64,000 bases of DNA, taken from positions 224,001 to 288,000 of the forward strand of contig OZ241986.1 of assembly GCA_965204375.1 (NCBI GenBank). Direction: 5' to 3'. The notes below the pieces were generated by a model, which ran no database searches, had not been told where the DNA came from, and saw nothing but the letters and a program-made list of their open reading frames with translations. The translations under genes were made by a program, and so were the position numbers. Origin of the DNA: Candidatus Latescibacterota bacterium. Lineage in GTDB: Bacteria; Latescibacterota; UBA2968. Below, one piece after another: positions 19,072-31,924 of this stretch (positions are counted from its first letter, which is position 1; each line of letters starts with the position of its first letter).

Positions 19072-20808
19072 ATGTCTGAGGTTTCTAAATCTGATTATCT
19101 GGTCATTGGCAGTGGTATTGCGGGTCTCTCGTTTGCGCTTAAAGCGGCAGAGACCGGGTCTGTCACCCTGATTACAAAAAAAGAGTTTCAGGAATCCAAT
19201 ACCAATTACGCACAGGGCGGTATTGCTTCTGTTTTGCATCCCGACGATTCGTTTGATCTGCATCGGGAAGATACGATTCAGGCTGGCGCGGGTTTGTGTC
19301 GTGAAGATGTGGTGGATCTGGTGGTGCGAGCAGGTCCCGATATGGTTAAGGCACTCATTGCCTGGGGGGCTGAGTTTACGCGGGCGAGTGATTCGCAACT
19401 GCCGTTGTACTCCGATTCAGAAGTTCAAAATCTCGCGCTCGGGCGCGAGGGCGGGCATTCAAAAAGTCGCATTGTATATGCCGCGGACCTGACCGGGCGG
19501 GAGATTGAGCGGGCGTTGACCGAAGCAGCGTCAGCACATCCCAATATCGCGTTGTACGAGCATCACATGGCGATTGATTTGATCACGGAACACCATGTGT
19601 ATGGTTCAAAAATTTCAACGCCGGGGAAGATTCAGTGTTGGGGCGTTTACGCACTGGATGCCATGCAGGGGCAGGTGAAGACGTTTTTGGCAAAGTTTAC
19701 GTTGTTGTGTAGCGGTGGGTGTGGTCAGATTTATTTGCATTCGACCAATCCGGCTATTGCTACGGGTGACGGTATTGCCATGGCGTATCGCGCGGGTGCA
19801 AGTGTGGGCAATTTGGAGTTTATGCAGTTTCATCCCACGACGCTTTATCACCGGGATGCAGATTCATTTTTGATTTCTGAAGCGGTGCGCGGGCATGGCG
19901 GGATTCTGGTAGATCGGGCGGGGCGGGCGTTTATGGCCGATTATCACGAGATGGGACCGCTTGCTCCTCGGGATGTGGTCGCGCGGGCAATTGATAGCGA
20001 GTTAAAAAAGAGCGGTGATCCCTGTGTGTTTCTCGATATTACGCATTGTCCGGGCGCAGAGCTTCAGGAACGTTTTCCCACGATTTATGACCGGTGTTTG
20101 CAATTTGACATTGATATAACGCAGCAGCCCATTCCGGTTGTGCCCGCTGCACACTATATGTGTGGTGGGGTGTTCACGGATACGCGGGGGCGCACGGATA
20201 TCGAAAGGCTTTACGCTTCGGGTGAGGTCGCCTGCACGGGGTTGCACGGGGCAAATCGCCTGGCGAGCAATTCGCTGTTAGAAGCTCTGGTTTTTTCCGA
20301 TCGCGCGTTTTCCGATATCCGACAGCACATAGATGCGCGGCTCGATTTTCCCGATGTGCCGGCATGGCAAGACGATGATGTGTTTAATACAGAAGAATGG
20401 GTGTTGCTATCACACGACCGGCAAGAGGTACAGCGTTTGATGTGGGATTATGTGGGGGTTGTGCGGTCGGATTTTCGCTTGAAGCGCGCAGCCCGTCGCA
20501 TTGGCGTGATTGTGCAGGAGGTCGAAGAATTCTATAAGCGCACACAAGTTACCGAGGCATTGCTGGAGTTGCGCAATATGACGACTGTTGCCGCGCTGAC
20601 TGTGCGCTGTGCATTGTCTCGGCGCGAGAGTCGGGGGTTGCACTACACACTCGATTGTCCTGCGCCATTCAAGTCTGCAGATGATACGGTGGTGTCGCCT
20701 GGGAGACGTGGGGTGCGGGATTGCCGGTTATTGAAGTGTGATCCGCAGATGACGCAGATGAACGCAGATGAAGAAGAGGGCTGGTGGGTTGGGCAGGCTG
20801 ACCGCTGA
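19072..20808 (+). CDS. nadB: L-aspartate oxidase
   Basis: 'GSGIAG', 'TNYAQGGIA', 'REGGHS..RI', 'EFMQFHPT', 'PAAHY.CGGV', 'GLHGANRLASNSLLE', 'ESRGLHY'. Confidence 0.95.
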   Translation: MSEVSKSDYLVIGSGIAGLSFALKAAETGSVTLITKKEFQESNTNYAQGGIASVLHPDDSFDLHREDTIQAGAGLCREDVVDLVVRAGPDMVKALIAWGAEFTRASDSQLPLYSDSEVQNLALGREGGHSKSRIVYAADLTGREIERALTEAASAHPNIALYEHHMAIDLITEHHVYGSKISTPGKIQCWGVYALDAMQGQVKTFLAKFTLLCSGGCGQIYLHSTNPAIATGDGIAMAYRAGASVGNLEFMQFHPTTLYHRDADSFLISEAVRGHGGILVDRAGRAFMADYHEMGPLAPRDVVARAIDSELKKSGDPCVFLDITHCPGAELQERFPTIYDRCLQFDIDITQQPIPVVPAAHYMCGGVFTDTRGRTDIERLYASGEVACTGLHGANRLASNSLLEALVFSDRAFSDIRQHIDARLDFPDVPAWQDDDVFNTEEWVLLSHDRQEVQRLMWDYVGVVRSDFRLKRAARRIGVIVQEVEEFYKRTQVTEALLELRNMTTVAALTVRCALSRRESRGLHYTLDCPAPFKSADDTVVSPGRRGVRDCRLLKCDPQMTQMNADEEEGWWVGQADR

Positions 20809-22862: not shown

Positions 22863-22886
22863 GTTAGCAAGTGCGGGTCTGCTAAC
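22863..22886. promoter_or_regulatory. Palindrome GTTAGCA-N10-TGCTAAC, candidate enhancer/activator site
   Basis: Perfect 7-bp inverted repeat 70-95 bp upstream of a sigma-54 -24 element. Confidence 0.45.
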
Positions 22887-22957
22887 AAAAATTATATACC
22901 CTTGTTTTTTAGTGTCTTAGAATATTCTGAGGCACTTTTTTTTGTTTTTTTGAAAAT

Positions 22958-22973
22958 AGGCACGGCATTTGCA
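22958..22973 (+). promoter_or_regulatory. Sigma-54 (RpoN) -24/-12 promoter AGGCACGGCATTTGCA
   Basis: Matches TGGCACG-N4-TTGCW at all positions except the first; GG-N10-GC spacing is exact; correctly oriented 73 bp before the first gene of the cluster. Confidence 0.7.
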
Positions 22974-23046
22974 GATATGCTGTGCGTAAATCGCGTGAAT
23001 AGGATTGAGGCGGACGGGATGTCCGCGATGATAGAGGGTTGAAGCT

Positions 23047-24300
23047 TTGAAAAATACTACAGTTGCATTTTATAGCCAGCATCTCATTGGCGTTGGGCAC
23101 CACTTTCGCAATCGACAGATTGTCAATGAACTGGTCAAGACCTGCGATGTGTTTTTCATCGATGGCGGGCGACCAATTCCCGAGGCTGATCTCGATAAAC
23201 GGGTGGTGCGTATTCTCCTGCCGCCCCTTCGCTCGGGCGCACAGGGCATTGAGTCTGTTGATACGGAGAGAGATTTGCAGACTGTGATGCACGAGCGTCA
23301 GGTCAGGCTTTCCGAAGCTATGGAACAGATTTGTCCGGATGTGTTTTGTGTTGAATTTTTCCCTTTTTCCAGATGGTCGCTCAAGAGCGAAATCCTCAAT
23401 ACAATAGTCAGGCTCAATGAGGTCAATCCCGACGCGCAGGTGTTGTGTTCTCTGCGCGATATTCCAACGCGGGCAAAAAGCAATGTGTTGCAACCGACTG
23501 CCGCGCTTGTCCAGAGGCGGGATGGGGACGCGATGCGGTTTTATTCGGTGCCTTTTGGCGGGATACATCACGAGTATTTAGCTTTTAATCGGCGGTATTA
23601 CGAGGAGGTCGTGCCCGTGTTGAATCAGTATTTCGATGCGGTATTGGTGCATGGCGATTCTCAACTATCCCGGCTGGAAGATCACTTTCCCTGGACTGCT
23701 GATATCAGTATTCCCGTGGTTTATACGGGGTTTGTTTCTGAGAAACTCGAGAACGCATCTCGGCCCAATAGTGCGCCGAATCGGTATGTGCTGGTCAGTG
23801 CTGGCGGTGGAACTGAGGGGCTTGCGCTTGTTGCGCCATGTATTGAAGCGTGGAAACAATTGGATCAGGGCGATGCGCACGATGGACGCGAGATGGTGAT
23901 TTTTACTGGTGCGTTTATCGATGAAACGCATTTTGACGCTTTGCATGCGTTGTGCGGTGATGGTCCGTTTCGCATTGAGCGTTTTACGTCCAATTTTTTG
24001 GCCTGGATGAAACACGCGGATTTGTCGATTAGCCGGGCGGGCTACAATACGTGTATGAATGTACTTGAGACAGGTGTTCCATCGATTCTGGTGCCGAGTA
24101 TTGCGATGGATGATCAGGAATTTCGCGCGCAGGAACTGATGGGGTTGGGTATTGCAGGGGTGATACACCCCGATCAACTCGGTGCGGAAAAGATAGCAAA
24201 AGCTATTGCCGAAATGCTCGAAAGTTCTGTGCCCAAACACCATCTATCCCTGGACGGTGCCGAGCAAACGCGAAAATTTATAGACAGCGGTGCAAGGTAA
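23047..24300 (+). CDS. GT-B glycosyltransferase (COG4671-like, GT28 C-terminal-type domain)
   Basis: 'FYSQHLIGVGH', 'VEFFPF', 'CSLRDI', 'VLVHGD', 'LVSAGGG', 'SISRAGYNT', 'LVP....DQ..RA', 'LDGA'; TTG start. Confidence 0.85.
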   Translation: MKNTTVAFYSQHLIGVGHHFRNRQIVNELVKTCDVFFIDGGRPIPEADLDKRVVRILLPPLRSGAQGIESVDTERDLQTVMHERQVRLSEAMEQICPDVFCVEFFPFSRWSLKSEILNTIVRLNEVNPDAQVLCSLRDIPTRAKSNVLQPTAALVQRRDGDAMRFYSVPFGGIHHEYLAFNRRYYEEVVPVLNQYFDAVLVHGDSQLSRLEDHFPWTADISIPVVYTGFVSEKLENASRPNSAPNRYVLVSAGGGTEGLALVAPCIEAWKQLDQGDAHDGREMVIFTGAFIDETHFDALHALCGDGPFRIERFTSNFLAWMKHADLSISRAGYNTCMNVLETGVPSILVPSIAMDDQEFRAQELMGLGIAGVIHPDQLGAEKIAKAIAEMLESSVPKHHLSLDGAEQTRKFIDSGAR

Positions 24301-24315
24301 AAAACGAGGTGAAAG

Positions 24316-25719
24316 ATGAAAATTTATGTGTCACATCCGTATCACGACCGCGAGAAAGTGATGGCGTCGAATAGCGGGGCGTCCCTTTCGGGTTTTAACC
24401 ATGTGCAGGCGTTATCGAAGTATTGCGATGTGTATATGCCAGCGTCTGAAGCGGTGGATTATGGTCCGAATTTGCACGGTATTCAACCCGCATTTGAGAC
24501 GATTGATTCATCTCGCCAGTGGTTTGCGCGGCAGGATTTTGATGGTCTGTTGATGTTTGAACCCAGGGCAGATGACCTGGCGTTTTTTCGCCATGTGTGT
24601 CCCGCACCCATTGTGCTTCGGCTGTCGTGTTCTTTTGGACACAATCGGGATTTTGTCGATAAGGTGCTGAATTGTTATTCGCTGTTGCGGCCTTATGATG
24701 CCCTGTCGCCCAAGTCGGTGTATGTCGCTGACGAAGTGGGCAAGTTGGTGTTTGACAGATCGTATTTGCACGCGATTACCAATGGGGTAGATGCCGAGGT
24801 GTTTGTGCCAATGGATAAGTTGCACGCGCGCAAAGAGGTCGCGGATAAGACGGGTGATCAACGTTTCTTAGAGATGCCTGTGGTGGGTTTTTGCGGACGG
24901 TTTGAGCCGGGCAAGGGCGCGTATCCGTTTTTGCGGATGGCCGATTTGAATCCCAATGTGTTGTTTGCTGTGATTGGCAAGCAGTTCGCACCCGTGACGC
25001 ATCCTCCCAATGTGATCTTTTTGGGTGCGCAACCCTATACGCAGATGTCGCTGTATTACAATATGCTCGATGTGTTGTGCGCGCTGTCGGTGTATTCGTA
25101 TGAGTCTTGTCCCTCAACTGTGATAGAGGGCATGGCGTGTGGTCTTCCGGTTGTTGCGACAAATTTTGCGGGCGCGCCAGAGTTGTTGGGCAGTTGTGGG
25201 CGGTTGATTGAGATTGAGCGATTTGAAGATGAGCCATTGAATGTGACGGGGTATATCGCCCCTGAGGTGATTTCAGATGCTGTGCGCGATTTGTTGAATA
25301 GCAAAACGGAGCGTGTAGATATGGGGGAGCGTGCTCGCAAACGCGTGCTCGATTTTTCCTGGGATCATACGGCGCAGCAGCATATGACACTATTTAAAAA
25401 TCTGCGGATCAAACGCGATGCATCCGCCTGCCCGATACCAATAACCGTGAGTTTTACACAGGGTTGTGATGTATCTGGCGTGCCGAAAAGCATGTCTAAG
25501 GGATTTAACTATTTGGGAAGCGTGCAAGGTCCTTTGCCGCGCATTTCGTTTTTTGGGCAAGACCTGCCCCTTCTTGAAGGCTTGGTCCTTCACTTGATGC
25601 AACATTTACATCCAAACGAAGTCGAGGCTGTTCTGATGGGTTTATGCGAGACGCGCGCAATGGCCCACAAAACGCTTCGCAAAATCCGACACTTCAGCGA
25701 TATGCTCACGGCTCCCTGA
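24316..25719 (+). CDS. GT4 family glycosyltransferase with ~95-aa extra C-terminal domain
   Basis: 'ITNGVD...F', 'GRFEPGKG', 'ESCPSTVIEGMACGLPVVAT...GAPE' (EX7E), 'FSWD..A'; sequence continues ~95 aa past the usual GT4 end. Confidence 0.85.
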   Translation: MKIYVSHPYHDREKVMASNSGASLSGFNHVQALSKYCDVYMPASEAVDYGPNLHGIQPAFETIDSSRQWFARQDFDGLLMFEPRADDLAFFRHVCPAPIVLRLSCSFGHNRDFVDKVLNCYSLLRPYDALSPKSVYVADEVGKLVFDRSYLHAITNGVDAEVFVPMDKLHARKEVADKTGDQRFLEMPVVGFCGRFEPGKGAYPFLRMADLNPNVLFAVIGKQFAPVTHPPNVIFLGAQPYTQMSLYYNMLDVLCALSVYSYESCPSTVIEGMACGLPVVATNFAGAPELLGSCGRLIEIERFEDEPLNVTGYIAPEVISDAVRDLLNSKTERVDMGERARKRVLDFSWDHTAQQHMTLFKNLRIKRDASACPIPITVSFTQGCDVSGVPKSMSKGFNYLGSVQGPLPRISFFGQDLPLLEGLVLHLMQHLHPNEVEAVLMGLCETRAMAHKTLRKIRHFSDMLTAP

Positions 25720-25774
25720 TTGGTCCTATAGGGATACGGTTTATGTTGAGGTGGTAAAGAAAGGAGGTGGAGAA

Positions 25775-25999
25775 ATGACTGAGCGCATTACATCAAGGCC
25801 AGCACAATTTTTTGTGACCTGTGTTCAGCTTCCCGGTCAAGAAAGCGAACTGGCACATGGTGAGATGGCGAATACTGCAGGAGGATGCATTTTGCCAGGA
25901 GAAGATCCACTTGAGCATCTTGAAGATATTATTGATTATGTCGAAGATGCGGTGGATTATATCGGAGATGCGGTGAGTGAATGGTGGGCTTCTTGGTAG
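25775..25999 (+). CDS. Putative double-glycine-leader precursor peptide A (74 aa; 37-aa acidic core)
   Basis: Strong RBS AAGGAGGT; leader ends ELAHGEMANTAGG; directly upstream of a C39-peptidase ABC transporter; paralogous to the next ORF. Confidence 0.75.
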   Translation: MTERITSRPAQFFVTCVQLPGQESELAHGEMANTAGGCILPGEDPLEHLEDIIDYVEDAVDYIGDAVSEWWASW

Positions 26000-26098
26000 C
26001 AATCGCACCACGCCCCGTAAGACGCTATTTCTGTTGTTCAGGTACTGGACGAAAATCATTTTTTCTGAATATTACAATTCATTTACCTGGAGGATATC

Positions 26099-26470
26099 AT
26101 GTATAATCGCGTGACTACAGATTCAGACGCCGCTTTTGCCTCTTGCACAACACTGCCTATCTATCAAAAAACGCTTAATGCTGAAGAGATGGCGGATATT
26201 GATGGCCTGGGAAGTGTGACAGATGCTATTGATGCAGCGGTAGATTATGTTTCTGATGTTGTTGATAAAATAGGAGATAGTGTTTCTGATTTTGTTGATT
26301 CGTTGTATTTTTACCCTCAGGATGCTGAGCCCATATATCTGCCTGATCCAACTACTATCCCAGCACCACCTGATACAATGAGGATGGTTACTAATGTAAT
26401 GTATTCCTGCGATGTGACGATCGCGGAGTTAGCTTCTGGTGCGATTTGTCCGTGTATGCCGCCGCCGTAG
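26099..26470 (+). CDS. Putative precursor peptide B (123 aa), same leader family
   Basis: RBS GGAGG; leader ends TLNAEEMADIDG(LG); 12 of the first 37 residues are identical to peptide A without gaps. Confidence 0.72.
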   Translation: MYNRVTTDSDAAFASCTTLPIYQKTLNAEEMADIDGLGSVTDAIDAAVDYVSDVVDKIGDSVSDFVDSLYFYPQDAEPIYLPDPTTIPAPPDTMRMVTNVMYSCDVTIAELASGAICPCMPPP

Positions 26471-26487
26471 GTCCGATGTGCATCAAC

Positions 26488-26531
26488 CCGTCATTCCCGC
26501 GCATGCCCCACGGCGTGTGTAGGAGTGACGG
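26488..26531 (+). repeat. Stem-loop (REP-like GTCATTCCCGCG) after the precursor genes
   Basis: ccgtcattcc (26488-26497) pairs with ggagtgacgg (26522-26531). Confidence 0.45.
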
Positions 26532-26662
26532 TGTTATATGAGGTAGGACTTACGTCACTCAGTACTGGAGAGTAGATAGCTTGCCTGACAGAGATTCTCA
26601 GAGCATTTTAGAAATCAGCATTGTAGTTGAGTTATAGACATGTTGCAGGACGGTTGGAGAAA

Positions 26663-29600
26663 ATGAATCTTTCGCACTTTTTCACCAAAAACTCGGTGCG
26701 TTCACAATCTGTTCACTTTCCCTTTGGAGGTGTTGTTTTTCAACAGGGTCAGGCGGGTGAGGCGTTTTACATTGTGCAGTCTGGACGGTTGCGGGTGATT
26801 AAGGAGGATGCGAATGGCAATTCGACAACTGTGGGCTATTTGTATGCGGGCGATCATTTTGGCGAAGGGGCATTGTTGAGTGGGCAAGGGCATCGGGCAT
26901 CGGTGCGTGTGGTTGAGGATGCGGATGTGTTGCAGGTGCCGAAGGATGAGTTTTTTAAGACTGTGAGAAAAAATTCTGACGTACGAGGTTATCTCGAAGA
27001 ACAGGTCGCCTGTATTGCGTATCGGGATTTTACGCGTTTTTTGAAAGGGGATGTTCCAGGCGAGGTGATGCGGGTGTTGTTCGCGCGGTTGAAGCGCGAG
27101 GTGGTTGAGCAGGGAATGACGGTTGTTGACCGAGGTCAGTTGGGTCATCGGTTTTATTTGATTGGCAGCGGTCAGTTGGAGGCTGTGTCAGAAAATGGGG
27201 ATACGGTGGTTTTAAACGCGGGTGATTATTTTGGTAATGAGAATTTGTCAGGTGATAAAAGAGTGATTCGCAGTCGGCGTGATAGTGTGCTTTTTTATAT
27301 AGATAAAAGCAATTTTAATAAGTTAAAAGCTATGATGCCGGGGTTTGAAGAAAGACTGGAGAGAGGACGTATATCGCGTGGAGAACAGCGATCGAATGAG
27401 TCATTGTTTCGACACGAACGACAAGTGCCCGAACCACCCGTTGACCGGTCTGATGAAAAACTGGCATCCAATATAGCATCCAATGTGGTTAATATCAGAA
27501 TAGACGGTGCAAAACCACAGGTGCCTACATTATTTCGCTTTCCATTTTTGAAGCAACACGATCAATCGGATTGTGGTGCGGCGTGTTTGGGCATGATTTG
27601 TAAGTATTACAATATGCCTATTGGGTTGAACAGGCTGCGCGATATGTCCAATGTGTCGCGGTATGGCACGTCGATGGCGGCATTGGCTGAGGCTGCGGAA
27701 ACCCTGGGTTTTATCACGCGCGGCGTGCGCACGGGATATGAGGCTCTGATAAAAACAGAATTGCCAGCCATTCTCCACTGGGAGGGCAATCATTTTGTGG
27801 TCTTGTATCAGATCAATAAAAAGGAGGTGAAGATAGCAGACCCCGGCGTGGGTATTCGCAAGCTGTCGCGGGCAGAGTTTGAGAAGGGGTGGACAAACAG
27901 GGCACTGTTGTTGGAATACACGGATCAGGTGGCGGAGAATGAACCGTCTCAGTCTTCTTTTAAGCGATTTTTTCCGTTAATCAGGCCCTATACAGGCATT
28001 TTGATTGAGGTATTGCTGGCGTCTCTGGTGCTCAGTTTGTTTGGTCTGGCATCGCCCATTTTTATGCAGACGATTGTCGATCAGGTCTTAGTGCATCACG
28101 ATAAGGATTTGTTGAACTTGATGCTGGTGGGTATGGTCGTGGTTGCGTTGTTCCAGATGGGCACATCAACGTTGCGCGTCTATTTAATCGGGTATATGAG
28201 TGCGCGGTTGAGCATTGCGATGTTGTCGCGTTTTTATCGGCATTTGCTGGCGCTGTCCATGCAGTTTTTTGCTCTCAGGCGCACGGGCGATTTGACCACG
28301 CGATTTAAAGAGAATGCAACGATTCGGCGATTGTTGACAGGTACGACGGTTTCTGCAGTTCTGGATTTTATCATGCTTTTTGTCTATCTGGGCTTGATGT
28401 TTTATTACAACACTGAACTGACGCTGGTCATGCTGATTTTTGTGCCGCTCCCTGTAGGGCTTACGCTGATTTACACGCCCATTTTGAAGGCTTTCAGCCA
28501 GCGCGCTTTTTTGGCGCGTGCCGAACAATCATCGGTTTTAATCGATTCGCTTCATGGCATTGATGTGGTCAAAGCCTCGGCGGTTGAGCGCGCGACGCGG
28601 TGGCATTGGGAAGGTAAGTTTACAAAGGAAATTCAGATTGGCTTTCAACGGTTAAAAATGCAGATGTTGTTTGGAGGGATAGGAAGTGTGATCAATTTGT
28701 TGAGCAGTACGGTGATTTTGTGGTATGGCGCCTCATTGGTGATTGAAGGGAACCTGTCGGTTGGACAGTTGATGGCGTTTAATGCGCTGATTGGCAATGT
28801 GATGGGCCCCATTATGGGCTTGATTGGGATATGGCCGCAGGTGCAAGAAGCGCGTATTGCTCTGGATCGGTTAAATGATGTGTATGATACGCAGATGGAG
28901 GATGCGCGACAACAGGGTCAGGGTTTGGTCTTAAAGCCTTTGGAAGGGCGTGTGGTTTTTGAGCGGGTGTTTTTCAGATACGGTATCGGTTCTGATGAAC
29001 CTTATGTGTTGAATAATATAGACTTGACACTTGAACCGGGTCAAAAAGTTGCAATTGTGGGACGCAGCGGCGCGGGTAAGACGACGTTGGTGAAACTGGT
29101 GCCTCGTTTATTTGATCCGTCAGAAGGTCGCGTGACGCTCGATGGGATGGATGTGCAGGATCTGGACCCTCATTGGTTGCGGCGACAGGTGGGTATGGTG
29201 ATGCAGGAACCGTTTTTGTTTTCTGGCACGATTGCAGAAAATATCGCCATTGGTCAGACAGACGCGGACATGGACCGCATTTTGGAAGTGGCAAAGCTAT
29301 CGTGTGTACACGATTTCGTAAGCGATATGCCTTTGGGGTATGAGACAAAGGTGGGCGAGCGGGGTGTGGGATTATCGGGTGGACAACGACAGCGGATCGC
29401 GATTGCACGGGCGCTGTATTGCGATCCCAAGATTTTGATTTTTGATGAGGCGACCAATGCCTTAGATACGGATTCAGAACAGGCGATTCAGGCGAATTTA
29501 GATCTGTTTTTGGATGATCGCACGGCGTTGATTATTGCGCATCGGTTGAGTACTGTGCGCGATGCGGATGCAATTGTGGTCCTGGACAAGGGGCACATTG

Positions 29601-29683
29601 TGGAGATGGGCACACACGATGAGTTGATGGTGCAACAAGGTTTGTACTATCACATGTGTAGTCAACAGTTGCAAGTAGTATGA
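26663..29683 (+). CDS. Peptidase-containing ABC transporter (PCAT/HlyB type): 2x cNMP-binding domains + C39 peptidase + TMD + NBD
   Basis: cNMP 'GEAFYIVQSG', 'GDHFGEGALL'; C39 'QHDQSDCGAACL', 'HWEGNHFVV', 'IADP'; Walker A GRSGAGKT, LSGGQ, DEAT, IAHRL; start uncertain (26627 TTG or 26663 ATG). Confidence 0.92.
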   Translation: MNLSHFFTKNSVRSQSVHFPFGGVVFQQGQAGEAFYIVQSGRLRVIKEDANGNSTTVGYLYAGDHFGEGALLSGQGHRASVRVVEDADVLQVPKDEFFKTVRKNSDVRGYLEEQVACIAYRDFTRFLKGDVPGEVMRVLFARLKREVVEQGMTVVDRGQLGHRFYLIGSGQLEAVSENGDTVVLNAGDYFGNENLSGDKRVIRSRRDSVLFYIDKSNFNKLKAMMPGFEERLERGRISRGEQRSNESLFRHERQVPEPPVDRSDEKLASNIASNVVNIRIDGAKPQVPTLFRFPFLKQHDQSDCGAACLGMICKYYNMPIGLNRLRDMSNVSRYGTSMAALAEAAETLGFITRGVRTGYEALIKTELPAILHWEGNHFVVLYQINKKEVKIADPGVGIRKLSRAEFEKGWTNRALLLEYTDQVAENEPSQSSFKRFFPLIRPYTGILIEVLLASLVLSLFGLASPIFMQTIVDQVLVHHDKDLLNLMLVGMVVVALFQMGTSTLRVYLIGYMSARLSIAMLSRFYRHLLALSMQFFALRRTGDLTTRFKENATIRRLLTGTTVSAVLDFIMLFVYLGLMFYYNTELTLVMLIFVPLPVGLTLIYTPILKAFSQRAFLARAEQSSVLIDSLHGIDVVKASAVERATRWHWEGKFTKEIQIGFQRLKMQMLFGGIGSVINLLSSTVILWYGASLVIEGNLSVGQLMAFNALIGNVMGPIMGLIGIWPQVQEARIALDRLNDVYDTQMEDARQQGQGLVLKPLEGRVVFERVFFRYGIGSDEPYVLNNIDLTLEPGQKVAIVGRSGAGKTTLVKLVPRLFDPSEGRVTLDGMDVQDLDPHWLRRQVGMVMQEPFLFSGTIAENIAIGQTDADMDRILEVAKLSCVHDFVSDMPLGYETKVGERGVGLSGGQRQRIAIARALYCDPKILIFDEATNALDTDSEQAIQANLDLFLDDRTALIIAHRLSTVRDADAIVVLDKGHIVEMGTHDELMVQQGLYYHMCSQQLQVV

Positions 29684-29771
29684 GGGGCTGGAGACTGAGG
29701 GCTGGGGACTGGTGAGCAGGTGGTCGTCTCACGTTTTACTTCTTACGTCTTACCGCTTTTAAGGAGCCTAA

Positions 29772-31154
29772 ATGGCAGAACGGCTTTTGGAGACATCGCC
29801 CGAGACAATGTCTCCCGGTATAATCCAGGGACAAGATGACGCGGCAGAAGAGGTGCATGCGTTTATGGGGTCTTTGCGGCCCTTTTGGGGGCGTGCATTG
29901 CTCTATATTGTCCTGCTGTTTGTGATTGTTGCCATTATCTGGGCGTGGTGGAGTAAGGTAGATGTGGTGGCATCAGCACCTTTTCGATTGGTGCCTTTGG
30001 GACAGGTGAAGACGATGCAGGCGCAGCGAGGTGGTGAAATTGAGTTGATTGGTGTTAAAGAAGGGGATCATGTCGAGAAAGGTGAGGTGTTGTTTAAGCT
30101 GAAATCGTGGGAGACGTGGGGAGAGTTGCGGGAATGGGAACAGGCAAAGATGGCTTTTCAAAAGGCGCAGTACGATCTCAAGGCGGTGTTGCCACAAAGA
30201 ACGAGATTAAATCGAGAGACGATAGGATCATTGGAACAACGTCTTTCTGTTTTGCAGCGGTTTATGGAGGCACATCAGAATGCGCTGGAAGATTATCAAA
30301 GCGATGTGGGCGGTGTTGAGGGATCGAAAACCAAAATATCTGACGCGGGGTTGCAAGCGCAGATCGGTTTTCGACAGGCTGAGATTGATCTTATGAAACA
30401 GGAATTTTTGCAGCAAAAAACGCTGTTTGAGCGCGCATTGATCAGCCGGGCGGATATGAATCGCGCGCGTGTGCAGTATTTGAGTGCATTGTCCGCGCTT
30501 CCGGGACGCATGTCGGAGATATACAAGAATGAAATGGCTGTGCAGGATCTCAAGCGTCAAATCACAGAAGCGCGGATTGCACACGAGCGCGAGGCTTCGC
30601 AGATGCGATACGCTTATGAAATCGCACAATTGCGATTGGAGCAGGCGCGCAAACGCATTGATCGCACCCTCGAAGCCGAGTCGGATTTGATTCTGGCGCC
30701 TGAATCAGGGATTGTCACACAGGTGATGGTGAATGCAGTTGGACAGGTGATCAGTAAGGGGCAACCTTTGGTTGCACTGGCACCGGCCTCAGCGCCGGTG
30801 GTTGCAGAAGTGATGGTGTTGAATAAAGATGTGGGCTTGCTCAAACCCGGGCAGTTGGTTAAGCTGAAATACGATGCGTATGCCTTTCAGGATTTTGGTA
30901 TCAAACGCGGATGGCTTACATCCATCTCGCCCGATGCGGTGATCAATGAAAGTATTGGACCGATATTTAAGTGCGTTGTCGAATTAGAAGAAAATACGAT
31001 GCGCGTGAAAGGATATGACAAGCCTCTGATGTTTGGTATGAAGGGCACGGCTGAGATGATGACAGATCGCCAATCGGTCTTGCTGATGTTGCTGAGTCCT
31101 TTGCGACAGCTTTACGAGTCGGCAAGGTACGATGTTCAGGAGGGCGCATTGTGA
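29772..31154 (+). CDS. HlyD family membrane fusion (periplasmic adaptor) protein
   Basis: One N-terminal TM helix; 'VKEGDHVEKGEVL' lipoyl half; long coiled coil; 'APESGIV'; 'NKDVG....GQ.VKLK.DAY.FQ.FG', 'ISPDA'. Confidence 0.92.
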   Translation: MAERLLETSPETMSPGIIQGQDDAAEEVHAFMGSLRPFWGRALLYIVLLFVIVAIIWAWWSKVDVVASAPFRLVPLGQVKTMQAQRGGEIELIGVKEGDHVEKGEVLFKLKSWETWGELREWEQAKMAFQKAQYDLKAVLPQRTRLNRETIGSLEQRLSVLQRFMEAHQNALEDYQSDVGGVEGSKTKISDAGLQAQIGFRQAEIDLMKQEFLQQKTLFERALISRADMNRARVQYLSALSALPGRMSEIYKNEMAVQDLKRQITEARIAHEREASQMRYAYEIAQLRLEQARKRIDRTLEAESDLILAPESGIVTQVMVNAVGQVISKGQPLVALAPASAPVVAEVMVLNKDVGLLKPGQLVKLKYDAYAFQDFGIKRGWLTSISPDAVINESIGPIFKCVVELEENTMRVKGYDKPLMFGMKGTAEMMTDRQSVLLMLLSPLRQLYESARYDVQEGAL

Positions 31155-31924
31155 TGTCAGAGGATGCTATACTGGTTCAGGTCAATGATGTCGAGGTGTC
31201 GTTGCGCCAGGTCGTGCGACAATTGGGTGTTGCTGATAATCTGCATTTTTTTAATGGGTTTGCGTGCGGGGAATTGATACGGCAACTCGCCCGGCGCGAG
31301 GGTGTTTGTGCAGCGCGTGAAGATATTCAGCGGAAGGTAGATGAATGGCGGTATCAACATCGCCTGGAGCGGGTGGAAGATACAGAGGCCTATCTCGCAA
31401 AGCGAGGTATTACGCTTCAGGATGTGACAGAAGATGCCGAGGTGAGACAACTGGAGTATTTGCTGTCTGAGAAGATTGCCAAAGGACAGGTCGAATCCTA
31501 TTTCGCTCAACACACACTGGCGTTTGATGAGGCGGAGATTTGCTGGATTTTTCACACGGATAAGGGTGTGATTGACGAGATTGATTTGCAGATTCGAGAC
31601 GATGGTGCAGACTTTTACGCGATGGCGCGTCGATTTTCTCAAGATGCACGCACGCGATCAGGGAGTGGCTTTTTGGGCCGCGTGCGGCGCAAGCAGTTGC
31701 CAAAGGGGATTGCTGCGCGCGTTTTTGCCGTGTCACCAGGTGAAATTTTGGGTCCGGAAAAAGTATCGAAAGGCTTTGCGCTGTACCTGGTGCAAGAACG
31801 CTACCCGGCAACACTAAATGAACGAACAAAAAAGGAGATCCGCAAGCACCTGTTTAATCAGTGGTTGCAACGCGAAGTACAGAAGGCAGATATACGGTAT
31901 CCGATTTGGCAGGCGGAAAGTTAA
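31151..31924 (+). CDS. Parvulin/PpiC-type peptidyl-prolyl isomerase-like protein
   Basis: 'DFYAMARRFSQD......GFLG...R..L......VF....GEI.GP' rotamase pattern; helical N-terminus; overlaps the hlyD stop (GTGA). Confidence 0.8.
   Translation: MMSEDAILVQVNDVEVSLRQVVRQLGVADNLHFFNGFACGELIRQLARREGVCAAREDIQRKVDEWRYQHRLERVEDTEAYLAKRGITLQDVTEDAEVRQLEYLLSEKIAKGQVESYFAQHTLAFDEAEICWIFHTDKGVIDEIDLQIRDDGADFYAMARRFSQDARTRSGSGFLGRVRRKQLPKGIAARVFAVSPGEILGPEKVSKGFALYLVQERYPATLNERTKKEIRKHLFNQWLQREVQKADIRYPIWQAES

Follow-up and report, generated by a model that had tools for sequence, protein, structure and literature searches.

Here, we describe a seven-gene operon at positions 22863..31924 of a 64,000-nucleotide stretch from Candidatus Latescibacterota bacterium (assembly GCA_965204375.1, contig OZ241986.1, positions 224,001 to 288,000 of the forward strand), which as a whole is called the window below. 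According to ORF calls, Pfam and NCBIfam its open reading frames (ORFs) are intact and co-oriented on the + strand, and all seven were found where a preliminary description of this DNA had placed them, between guaA on one side and a convergent PhyH-family gene on the other. The first gene (23047..24300, TTG start) encodes a GT-B glycosyltransferase (GT) of 417 aa that Pfam assigns to Glyco_tran_28_C (PF04101, E 9e-15) and that we call GT28-like. The second (24316..25719) encodes a GT4 enzyme of 467 aa, assigned by PF00534, modelled fold, motifs and clade. With these two Pfam families both enzymes are of GT-B type, as had been proposed, and not GT2 enzymes of the glycocin type. Two putative precursor genes follow, A (25775..25999, 74 aa, ribosome-binding site upstream) and B (26099..26470, 123 aa). 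The exporter (26663..29683, open from 26627, the ATG at 26663 being the likely start) combines two cyclic nucleotide (cNMP) domains, a C39 peptidase and an ABC transporter (PF00027 twice, PF03412, PF00664 and PF00005; TIGR01193 above cut-off). The C39 Cys, His and Asp are intact, in agreement with the preliminary description, and the motif check also shows Walker A, signature and Walker B. Pfam and NCBIfam models confirm the last two products, a HlyD-family periplasmic adaptor (29772..31154; TIGR01843 at cut-off) and a PpiC/parvulin-type rotamase-domain protein (31154..31924; PF00639; TIGR04500 E 7e-25, below cut-off), whose start overlaps the HlyD stop. The gaps along the seven genes are, in order, 15, 55, 99, 192, 88 and -1 bases. 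TolC-type proteins are encoded elsewhere in the genome.

A sigma-54-type -24/-12 promoter site with one mismatch is found at 22958..22973 on the + strand. By window count alone the promoter proposed earlier does not rise above chance (64 matches with at most two mismatches versus 76 expected), but the site is conserved across homologous loci, since the strict pattern recurs upstream of 14 of the 33 homologous GT28 ORFs where 0.003 are expected per 600 bases. The genome contains a sigma-54 gene, and a scan for sigma-70 sites gave matches at chance level. Between the precursors and the exporter the + strand can form a hairpin (26471..26549, -43.1 kcal/mol, z -4.9), which is single-copy in the genome and has similar sequences in 10 of 55 related loci; it may stabilise the precursor mRNA or attenuate read-through. 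A coral metatranscriptome assembly spans the operon plus its flanks, and as it includes these flanks and consists of contigs only, it shows neither transcription nor co-transcription of the operon. A stretch near-identical to the locus is also present in a coral metagenome run. At the nadB–guaA junction (window 20736-20785) lies a short GCAGATG-type repeat with about 96 matches in the genome, and related strains differ there.

The two small ORFs are indeed paralogous with a common leader (33% over 73 residues, E 2e-10), and both leaders comprise 37 residues. The earlier assignment of both to the double-glycine type holds for precursor A, the leader of which ends in Gly-Gly, but not for precursor B, which has Gly-Leu in the same register. 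The core of A (37 aa) is acidic (11 D/E, no K/R), starts with Cys and has a Trp-rich tail. The core of B (86 aa) is likewise acidic (14 D/E, 2 K/R) and contains 7 Ser, 6 Thr and 3 Cys. Thus, the cores in the window are strongly anionic as described before, but acidity is not a trait of the family. Its leaders have invariant Arg, Leu and Gly and a near-invariant Cys, while the cores are hypervariable, with 30 to more than 110 residues, and comprise acidic Trp-tailed, Gly/Ala-rich hydrophobic, Cys-tailed and Ser/Thr/Gly-rich types. The idea that a core must be acidic or contain Cys was rejected for the family as a whole. A script placed the cut position in 59 of the 66 precursors from loci with GTs; the inferred site is GG in 32, GL in 22 and another pair in 5, and two of the 22 GL leaders have GG three residues further on. 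Ser or Thr occurs in every one of these 59 cores. A search for precursors encoded in trans (E < 0.1) returned none beyond two decayed paralogous loci. In a related strain (run X1) 114 bases of the precursor B core (window 26287-26402) are replaced by 123 others while the flanks align, which points to in-frame core turnover between close strains.

The R-x4-K and E-x7-E motifs of the GT4 enzyme are intact and its model (predicted local distance difference test, pLDDT, 89.7) matches GT4 structures such as MshA. Compared with 23 orthologues the median ratio of nonsynonymous to synonymous substitution rates (dN/dS) is 0.18, equal in the core and the C-terminal domain, and the enzyme is apparently under purifying selection. 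Its family is tight, with about 467 residues, and homologues at 86-90% identity carry the source labels Latescibacteria or Gemmatimonadetes. The C-terminal domain (residues ~370-467; β-β-(β)-α-α-α) is specific for the clade, being present in 28 of 29 clade rows and in 0 of 32 other GT4s (hhalign 96.9%). Its order, strands and then three helices, is that of a recognition element (RRE) of RiPPs (peptides made by ribosomes and modified after translation). The top GT4 clusters in the ESM Atlas are a 566-aa family that is commonest in Bacillota and 446-463-aa families in Chloroflexota, which are possible further members of the clade beyond the two phyla studied here.

Within the phylum, GT4 matches were found in 24 of 168 genomes, namely the window's own, all 20 others of its genus and 3 in two further genera. 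All 35 matches outside the window were fetched as loci, and the predicted co-occurrence with precursor and exporter genes was borne out: 34 of 35 loci have a precursor, 33 an exporter and 32 a GT28-like gene. The leader-family precursor lies downstream and the GT28-like gene upstream of GT4, and most misses are contig ends. The operon is conserved and, as a combination, apparently undescribed. As it is found in every sampled genome of the genus, often in several copies, these uncultured marine bacteria probably possess the system as a lasting trait.

More distant relatives are known from Poribacteria. The species-genome scan for full-length GT4 relatives yielded a single true clade member, from Poribacteria (L004, 32%), the other 78 being generic GT4s, and the metagenome scan gave 3 short contigs. 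Window and Poribacteria GT4s form one clade (Shimodaira–Hasegawa-like approximate likelihood ratio test, SH-aLRT, 99 in a quick tree) apart from 32 other GT4s, and enzymes of the L004 type are matched in 62 of 176 Poribacteria genomes. All of 20 hand-picked Poribacteria loci contain a tandem pair of an active-looking GT4 and a partner that lacks donor-binding motifs; 18 have an A24 prepilin peptidase and 17 beta-propeller genes, and a Cys-rich peptide with pilin leader was detected in 10. These cassettes share with the Latescibacterota operon the GT4 clade, its C-terminal domain and adjoining hypervariable precursors, but differ in the N-terminal RRE-like domain, the catalytically degenerate partner, the prepilin-type leaders and in having A24 peptidase and beta-propeller genes instead of a C39 exporter with HlyD. 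In the L004 enzyme the first 100 residues have matches to the N-terminal parts of the radical-SAM peptide-maturase models NF040492 (E 4e-8), TIGR03974 and TIGR03906, which we take to be RREs, and are thus read as an RRE-like domain; the N-terminus of its partner has no match to these maturase models. Fusions of RRE and glycosyltransferase were noted bioinformatically in the accessible part of PMC7470986 and may overlap with the Poribacteria-type enzymes, whereas the fusions in the portion available from PMC12710340 involve PF00535, i.e. GT2. Judging from these neighbourhoods, the distinct GT4 clade to which the window GT4 belongs is peptide-associated. In L004 and L171-L190 repeated Cys-rich peptides with Flp-like leaders alternate with beta-propeller genes, and GT copies reach up to 7 or more per genome.

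The same quick tree places the window family together with the degenerate partners from Poribacteria (support 87). In addition, the window family lacks the His that usually follows the fourth strand in many GT4s. Both would fit an enzyme that binds the precursor but serves as scaffold or chaperone or catalyses something other than glycosyl transfer, as the dead partners appear to do. We consider such a role quite improbable since the partners have lost the two donor-binding motifs whereas the window family retains them intact, and since purifying selection acts on the GT-B core.

Of 32 relatives, 17 have the GT28-like domain as a fusion with an additional GT4 domain; two different GT4s, in opposite orders, are involved, and the window copy is unfused. 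A paralogue in the window's genome is fused to GT4 within a radical-SAM RiPP-like cluster, and the three other paralogue loci of genome G080 comprise one radical-SAM cluster and two S8-peptidase/ABC-export clusters. By this context the GT28-like family, too, is peptide-associated. A radical-SAM/SPASM cluster (L003:1128-16659, ~4.44 Mb in G000) contains a Cys/Asp-repeat precursor, an ABC transporter, a GT4-GT28 fusion (42% to the window GT28), another GT4, a sulfotransferase and a daptide-type membrane protease with PqqD-like N-terminus. In G080 (L170:1272-11755 and L169:1865-11109) GT28-like paralogues stand by fusions of a QhpE-like S8 peptidase with TIGR04066 and by ABC exporters; in L170 genes for an acyl carrier protein and for a bacteriocin-like peptide of 84 aa are present as well.

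On balance it is probable that the two GT-B enzymes glycosylate the precursors in the cytoplasm before C39 cleavage and HlyD/TolC-type export, a scheme in which we infer the cleavage site, the glycosylation itself, the acceptor residue, the order of steps and the biological role. GT4 would be the peptide-directed enzyme that transfers the first sugar from a nucleotide-sugar donor onto Cys or Ser/Thr of the core, the best candidate acceptor being the Cys with which the core of precursor A begins (position +1). The GT28-like enzyme, in many relatives together with the fused GT4 domain, might then extend the glycan or modify other sites. During export the C39 domain would strip the leader, and the core would leave via HlyD and a TolC-type channel encoded elsewhere. 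The GT module could represent an optional tailoring unit acting on a hypervariable family of secreted peptides. A more far-reaching proposal, which we hold only tentatively and with less than even confidence, is a RiPP class defined by GT-B chemistry alone, i.e. a leader-reading GT4 clade that S- or O-glycosylates hypervariable cores and was recruited independently in two lineages. Under this proposal an RRE or the C-terminal domain of GT4 itself would serve for reading the leader, and in the present operon the Cys destined to be the mature N-terminus would receive a retaining-type S-glycoside; the recruitment would have been to C39-exported double-glycine precursors here and to prepilin-peptidase-processed ones in Poribacteria.

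Exporter matches are more widespread than GT4, occurring in 42 of the 168 phylum genomes including all 15 of genus g10. All 11 g10 loci fetched contain precursors, exporter and, within the stretch, HlyD and the peptidyl-prolyl isomerase (PPIase) but no GT, and GT28 was not found in 3 g10 genomes and in G042, with G080 as positive control. Since g10 keeps precursors and exporter without GT4, the GTs are dispensable and appear to be an optional module for tailoring peptides. A quick tree of 49 exporters (midpoint root) has nine g10 rows as one clade nested among clades with GTs, which fits GT loss. Ahead of the first precursor, L148 (E 0.05) and L156 (E 0.17) retain weak traces of the GT4 C-terminus, and in L157 (G042:C1:5529206-5529475) the C-terminal 90 GT4 residues at 63% identity stand in front of a precursor and may be a remnant or a stand-alone domain. 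The two short precursor types differ between these lineages: Cys occurs in the first three residues of 15/15 type-A cores from loci with GTs versus 0/11 from g10 loci without, and for type-C cores the numbers are 7/9 versus 0/9.

Several points weigh against glycosylation of the precursors, the proposal of which derives from gene context and sequence. GT4 has no match in the 15 g10 genomes, and the leader is unchanged where GTs are absent, so that the exporter alone explains its conservation. The Cys contrast is a hint and no independent test because it reflects one lineage-level loss and charge, too, distinguishes the cores (11 versus 2 in mean net acidity). Cys is absent from 14 of the 59 cut cores from loci with GTs, no conserved acceptor motif was found among these 59, and the cut site expected in precursor B reads Gly-Leu. 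Sugar-nucleotide biosynthesis genes are absent from the operon, and the fused GT4 domain of the GT28-like relatives is closest to TIGR04063, an exopolysaccharide/PEP-CTERM-associated family. Moreover, the window GT4 has no N-terminal RRE-like domain, and its C-terminal domain gave no significant RRE match with Foldseek, VIA-align, PDB sequence search or NCBIfam. Rank 2 in Foldseek is the lasso B1 protein 6jx3 with weak values (E 0.31, template modelling score, TM, 0.32), the best VIA Z score of 6.7 concerns helices only, and the domain model reaches a predicted TM score (pTM) of 0.51; one hit (0.75) came from the ESM Atlas, and hhalign comparison with the N-terminal domains of the Poribacteria enzymes gave a probability of 0.9-3.5%, neither being significant.

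Such data would also suit peptides that leave the cell without modification and work as class II bacteriocin-like or signalling molecules, with the GTs as co-regulated passengers acting on an envelope glycan, a lipid or a small molecule. The persistence of precursors, exporter, HlyD and PPIase in the 15 g10 genomes without a GT4 match (GT28 being unfound in the three tested), the resemblance of many cores to Gly/Ala-rich hydrophobic bacteriocins, the missing conserved acceptor and the TIGR04063-like fused domain all favour it. We nevertheless find it unlikely, since two phyla, whose leaders and processing enzymes are unrelated, both have this GT4 clade tied to precursors, in one version with an RRE-like domain, and since just one of the 35 GT4 copies (L123) lies away from precursors, the remaining cluster of that genome being about 40 kb distant (L160).

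The preliminary description took the lack of an evident immunity gene as a hint at a non-antibiotic role. The window indeed has no CPBP gene, but the argument fails at the family level because many relatives carry a gene for a CPBP/Abi-type membrane protease (15 of 35 GT4 loci and 10 of 11 g10 loci), presumably an immunity gene in view of what is generally known about Abi proteins. Other related loci have DUF3267, M16 and tetratricopeptide repeat (TPR) genes. The hypervariable secreted peptides most likely act as bacteriocin-like or signalling agents, which fits the hypervariable cores and the variable immunity-like genes. One may also ask whether the sugar is immunity rather than product, i.e. 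whether the GTs glycosylate the peptide or its target for self-protection, like macrolide-inactivating glycosyltransferases. The window, with GTs, has no CPBP gene while 10 of 11 GT-less loci do, and the GT28-like protein has weak matches, far below cut-off, to the models MGT (E 3e-11) and OleI (E 1e-4). We give this explanation very little credence, as the 15 GT4 loci mentioned above contain CPBP and GTs together, the operon encodes no reactivating glycosidase and the MGT and OleI matches represent generic GT-B similarity.

Among known systems, class IIb microcins (MccE492, MccH47) also combine a GT-B enzyme, a double-glycine precursor, a C39 exporter and an adaptor in a diderm. Their GT glucosylates enterobactin, which is attached by separate ligase proteins. 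By contrast, the operon described here has no siderophore-ligation genes, all seven genes being otherwise assigned. Glycocin systems (sublancin, glycocin F, thurandacin) include a C39 exporter, too, and share with this operon a glycosyltransferase, a leader peptide and Cys and Ser/Thr as candidate acceptors. Following the accessible text of PMC11912497, no RiPP class other than glycocins is defined by glycosylation, and GT2 is the family predicted for their GTs. Here no SunS-like GT2 but only GT4 and GT28-like GT-B enzymes are present. Furthermore, glycocin cores are short with nested disulfides, while those described here are long, hypervariable and mostly acidic; with 86 aa and 3 Cys the core of B is an example, and the single core Cys of A means that nested disulfides are impossible. 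The operon also differs in HlyD-type export and in lacking a thiol-disulfide oxidoreductase gene.

A precedent for peptide O-glycosylation by GT4 is GtfA-GtfB, an O-GlcNAc transferase acting on a serine-rich-repeat protein (PMC12809243, accessible part). Both systems would share cytoplasmic Ser/Thr glycosylation by GT4 before export and extension of the glycan by further GTs, but GtfA-GtfB has a large adhesin as substrate and uses accessory Sec, and no specific sequence relationship was found beyond the GT4 fold. GT4 genes within RiPP clusters are exemplified by Cao24 of cacaoidin (10.1101/2020.05.20.105809, as far as accessible) and by the GG-Bacteroidales GT of TIGR04157, a model against which the window GT scores 28.8 bits (cut-off 400). 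In these systems lanthipeptide or radical-SAM chemistry is primary and the GT plays a secondary part, whereas here the GTs are the only modifying enzymes; according to Pfam and NCBIfam the operon has no radical-SAM enzyme, as stated earlier.

The preliminary description knew of no system with this gene set. This holds for the combination with GT-B enzymes, which was not found in the open-access literature (subscription papers are outside that coverage), but not for the export trio. The latter is of a described type and not new because it matches the group I and II bacteriocin clusters of Wang et al. 2011 (PMC3140520), defined in the accessible text by a CAP_ED-C39 exporter, HlyD and rotamase. 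Common features are a long-type C39 ABC exporter with N-terminal CAP_ED/cNMP domain, adjoining genes for HlyD and a SurA-like rotamase and arrays of double-glycine precursors (here precursor A with Gly-Gly), and group II has M16 peptidases in common with the related loci L137 and L001. In contrast, those clusters are from another phylum (cyanobacteria) and are themselves bioinformatic predictions, the leader described here matches no Pfam or NCBIfam family (no NHLP, Nif11 or HetP), and glycosyltransferases are unmentioned in the accessible text and readable supplements of that paper. The GT-B pair is therefore the new part, added to an export backbone that is already known. In the accessible parts of the sponge-microbiome papers PMC9426513, PMC11832590 and 10.1101/2023.06.09.544420 the terms "glycosyl" and "C39" are absent.

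Glycosylation is rare in RiPPs and the operon is a strong lead for a glycopeptide class defined by GT-B enzymes, which, if true, would mean that ribosomal glycopeptides can arise by a so far undescribed route. Should one GT4 clade indeed accept dozens of unrelated cores that share a single leader, the way in which it glycosylates peptides would be new chemistry and it might supply a core-tolerant biocatalyst, and lineages with and without GTs provide a natural control for the effect of the sugar.

Finally, the window has the sole intact copy of the export trio in its genome. Two further copies (L001:13783-17223 and L002:13268-16928, ~4.02 and 5.83 Mb in G000) have internal deletions that fuse exporter and HlyD, and each comes with a leader-related precursor and without GT; L001 has M16 peptidase pairs and L002 a transposase-like ORF upstream. 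Another, paralogous export-trio lineage of the same genus (L161-L166), without GTs within the stretches fetched, is accompanied by very acidic long precursors and paired M16 peptidases.

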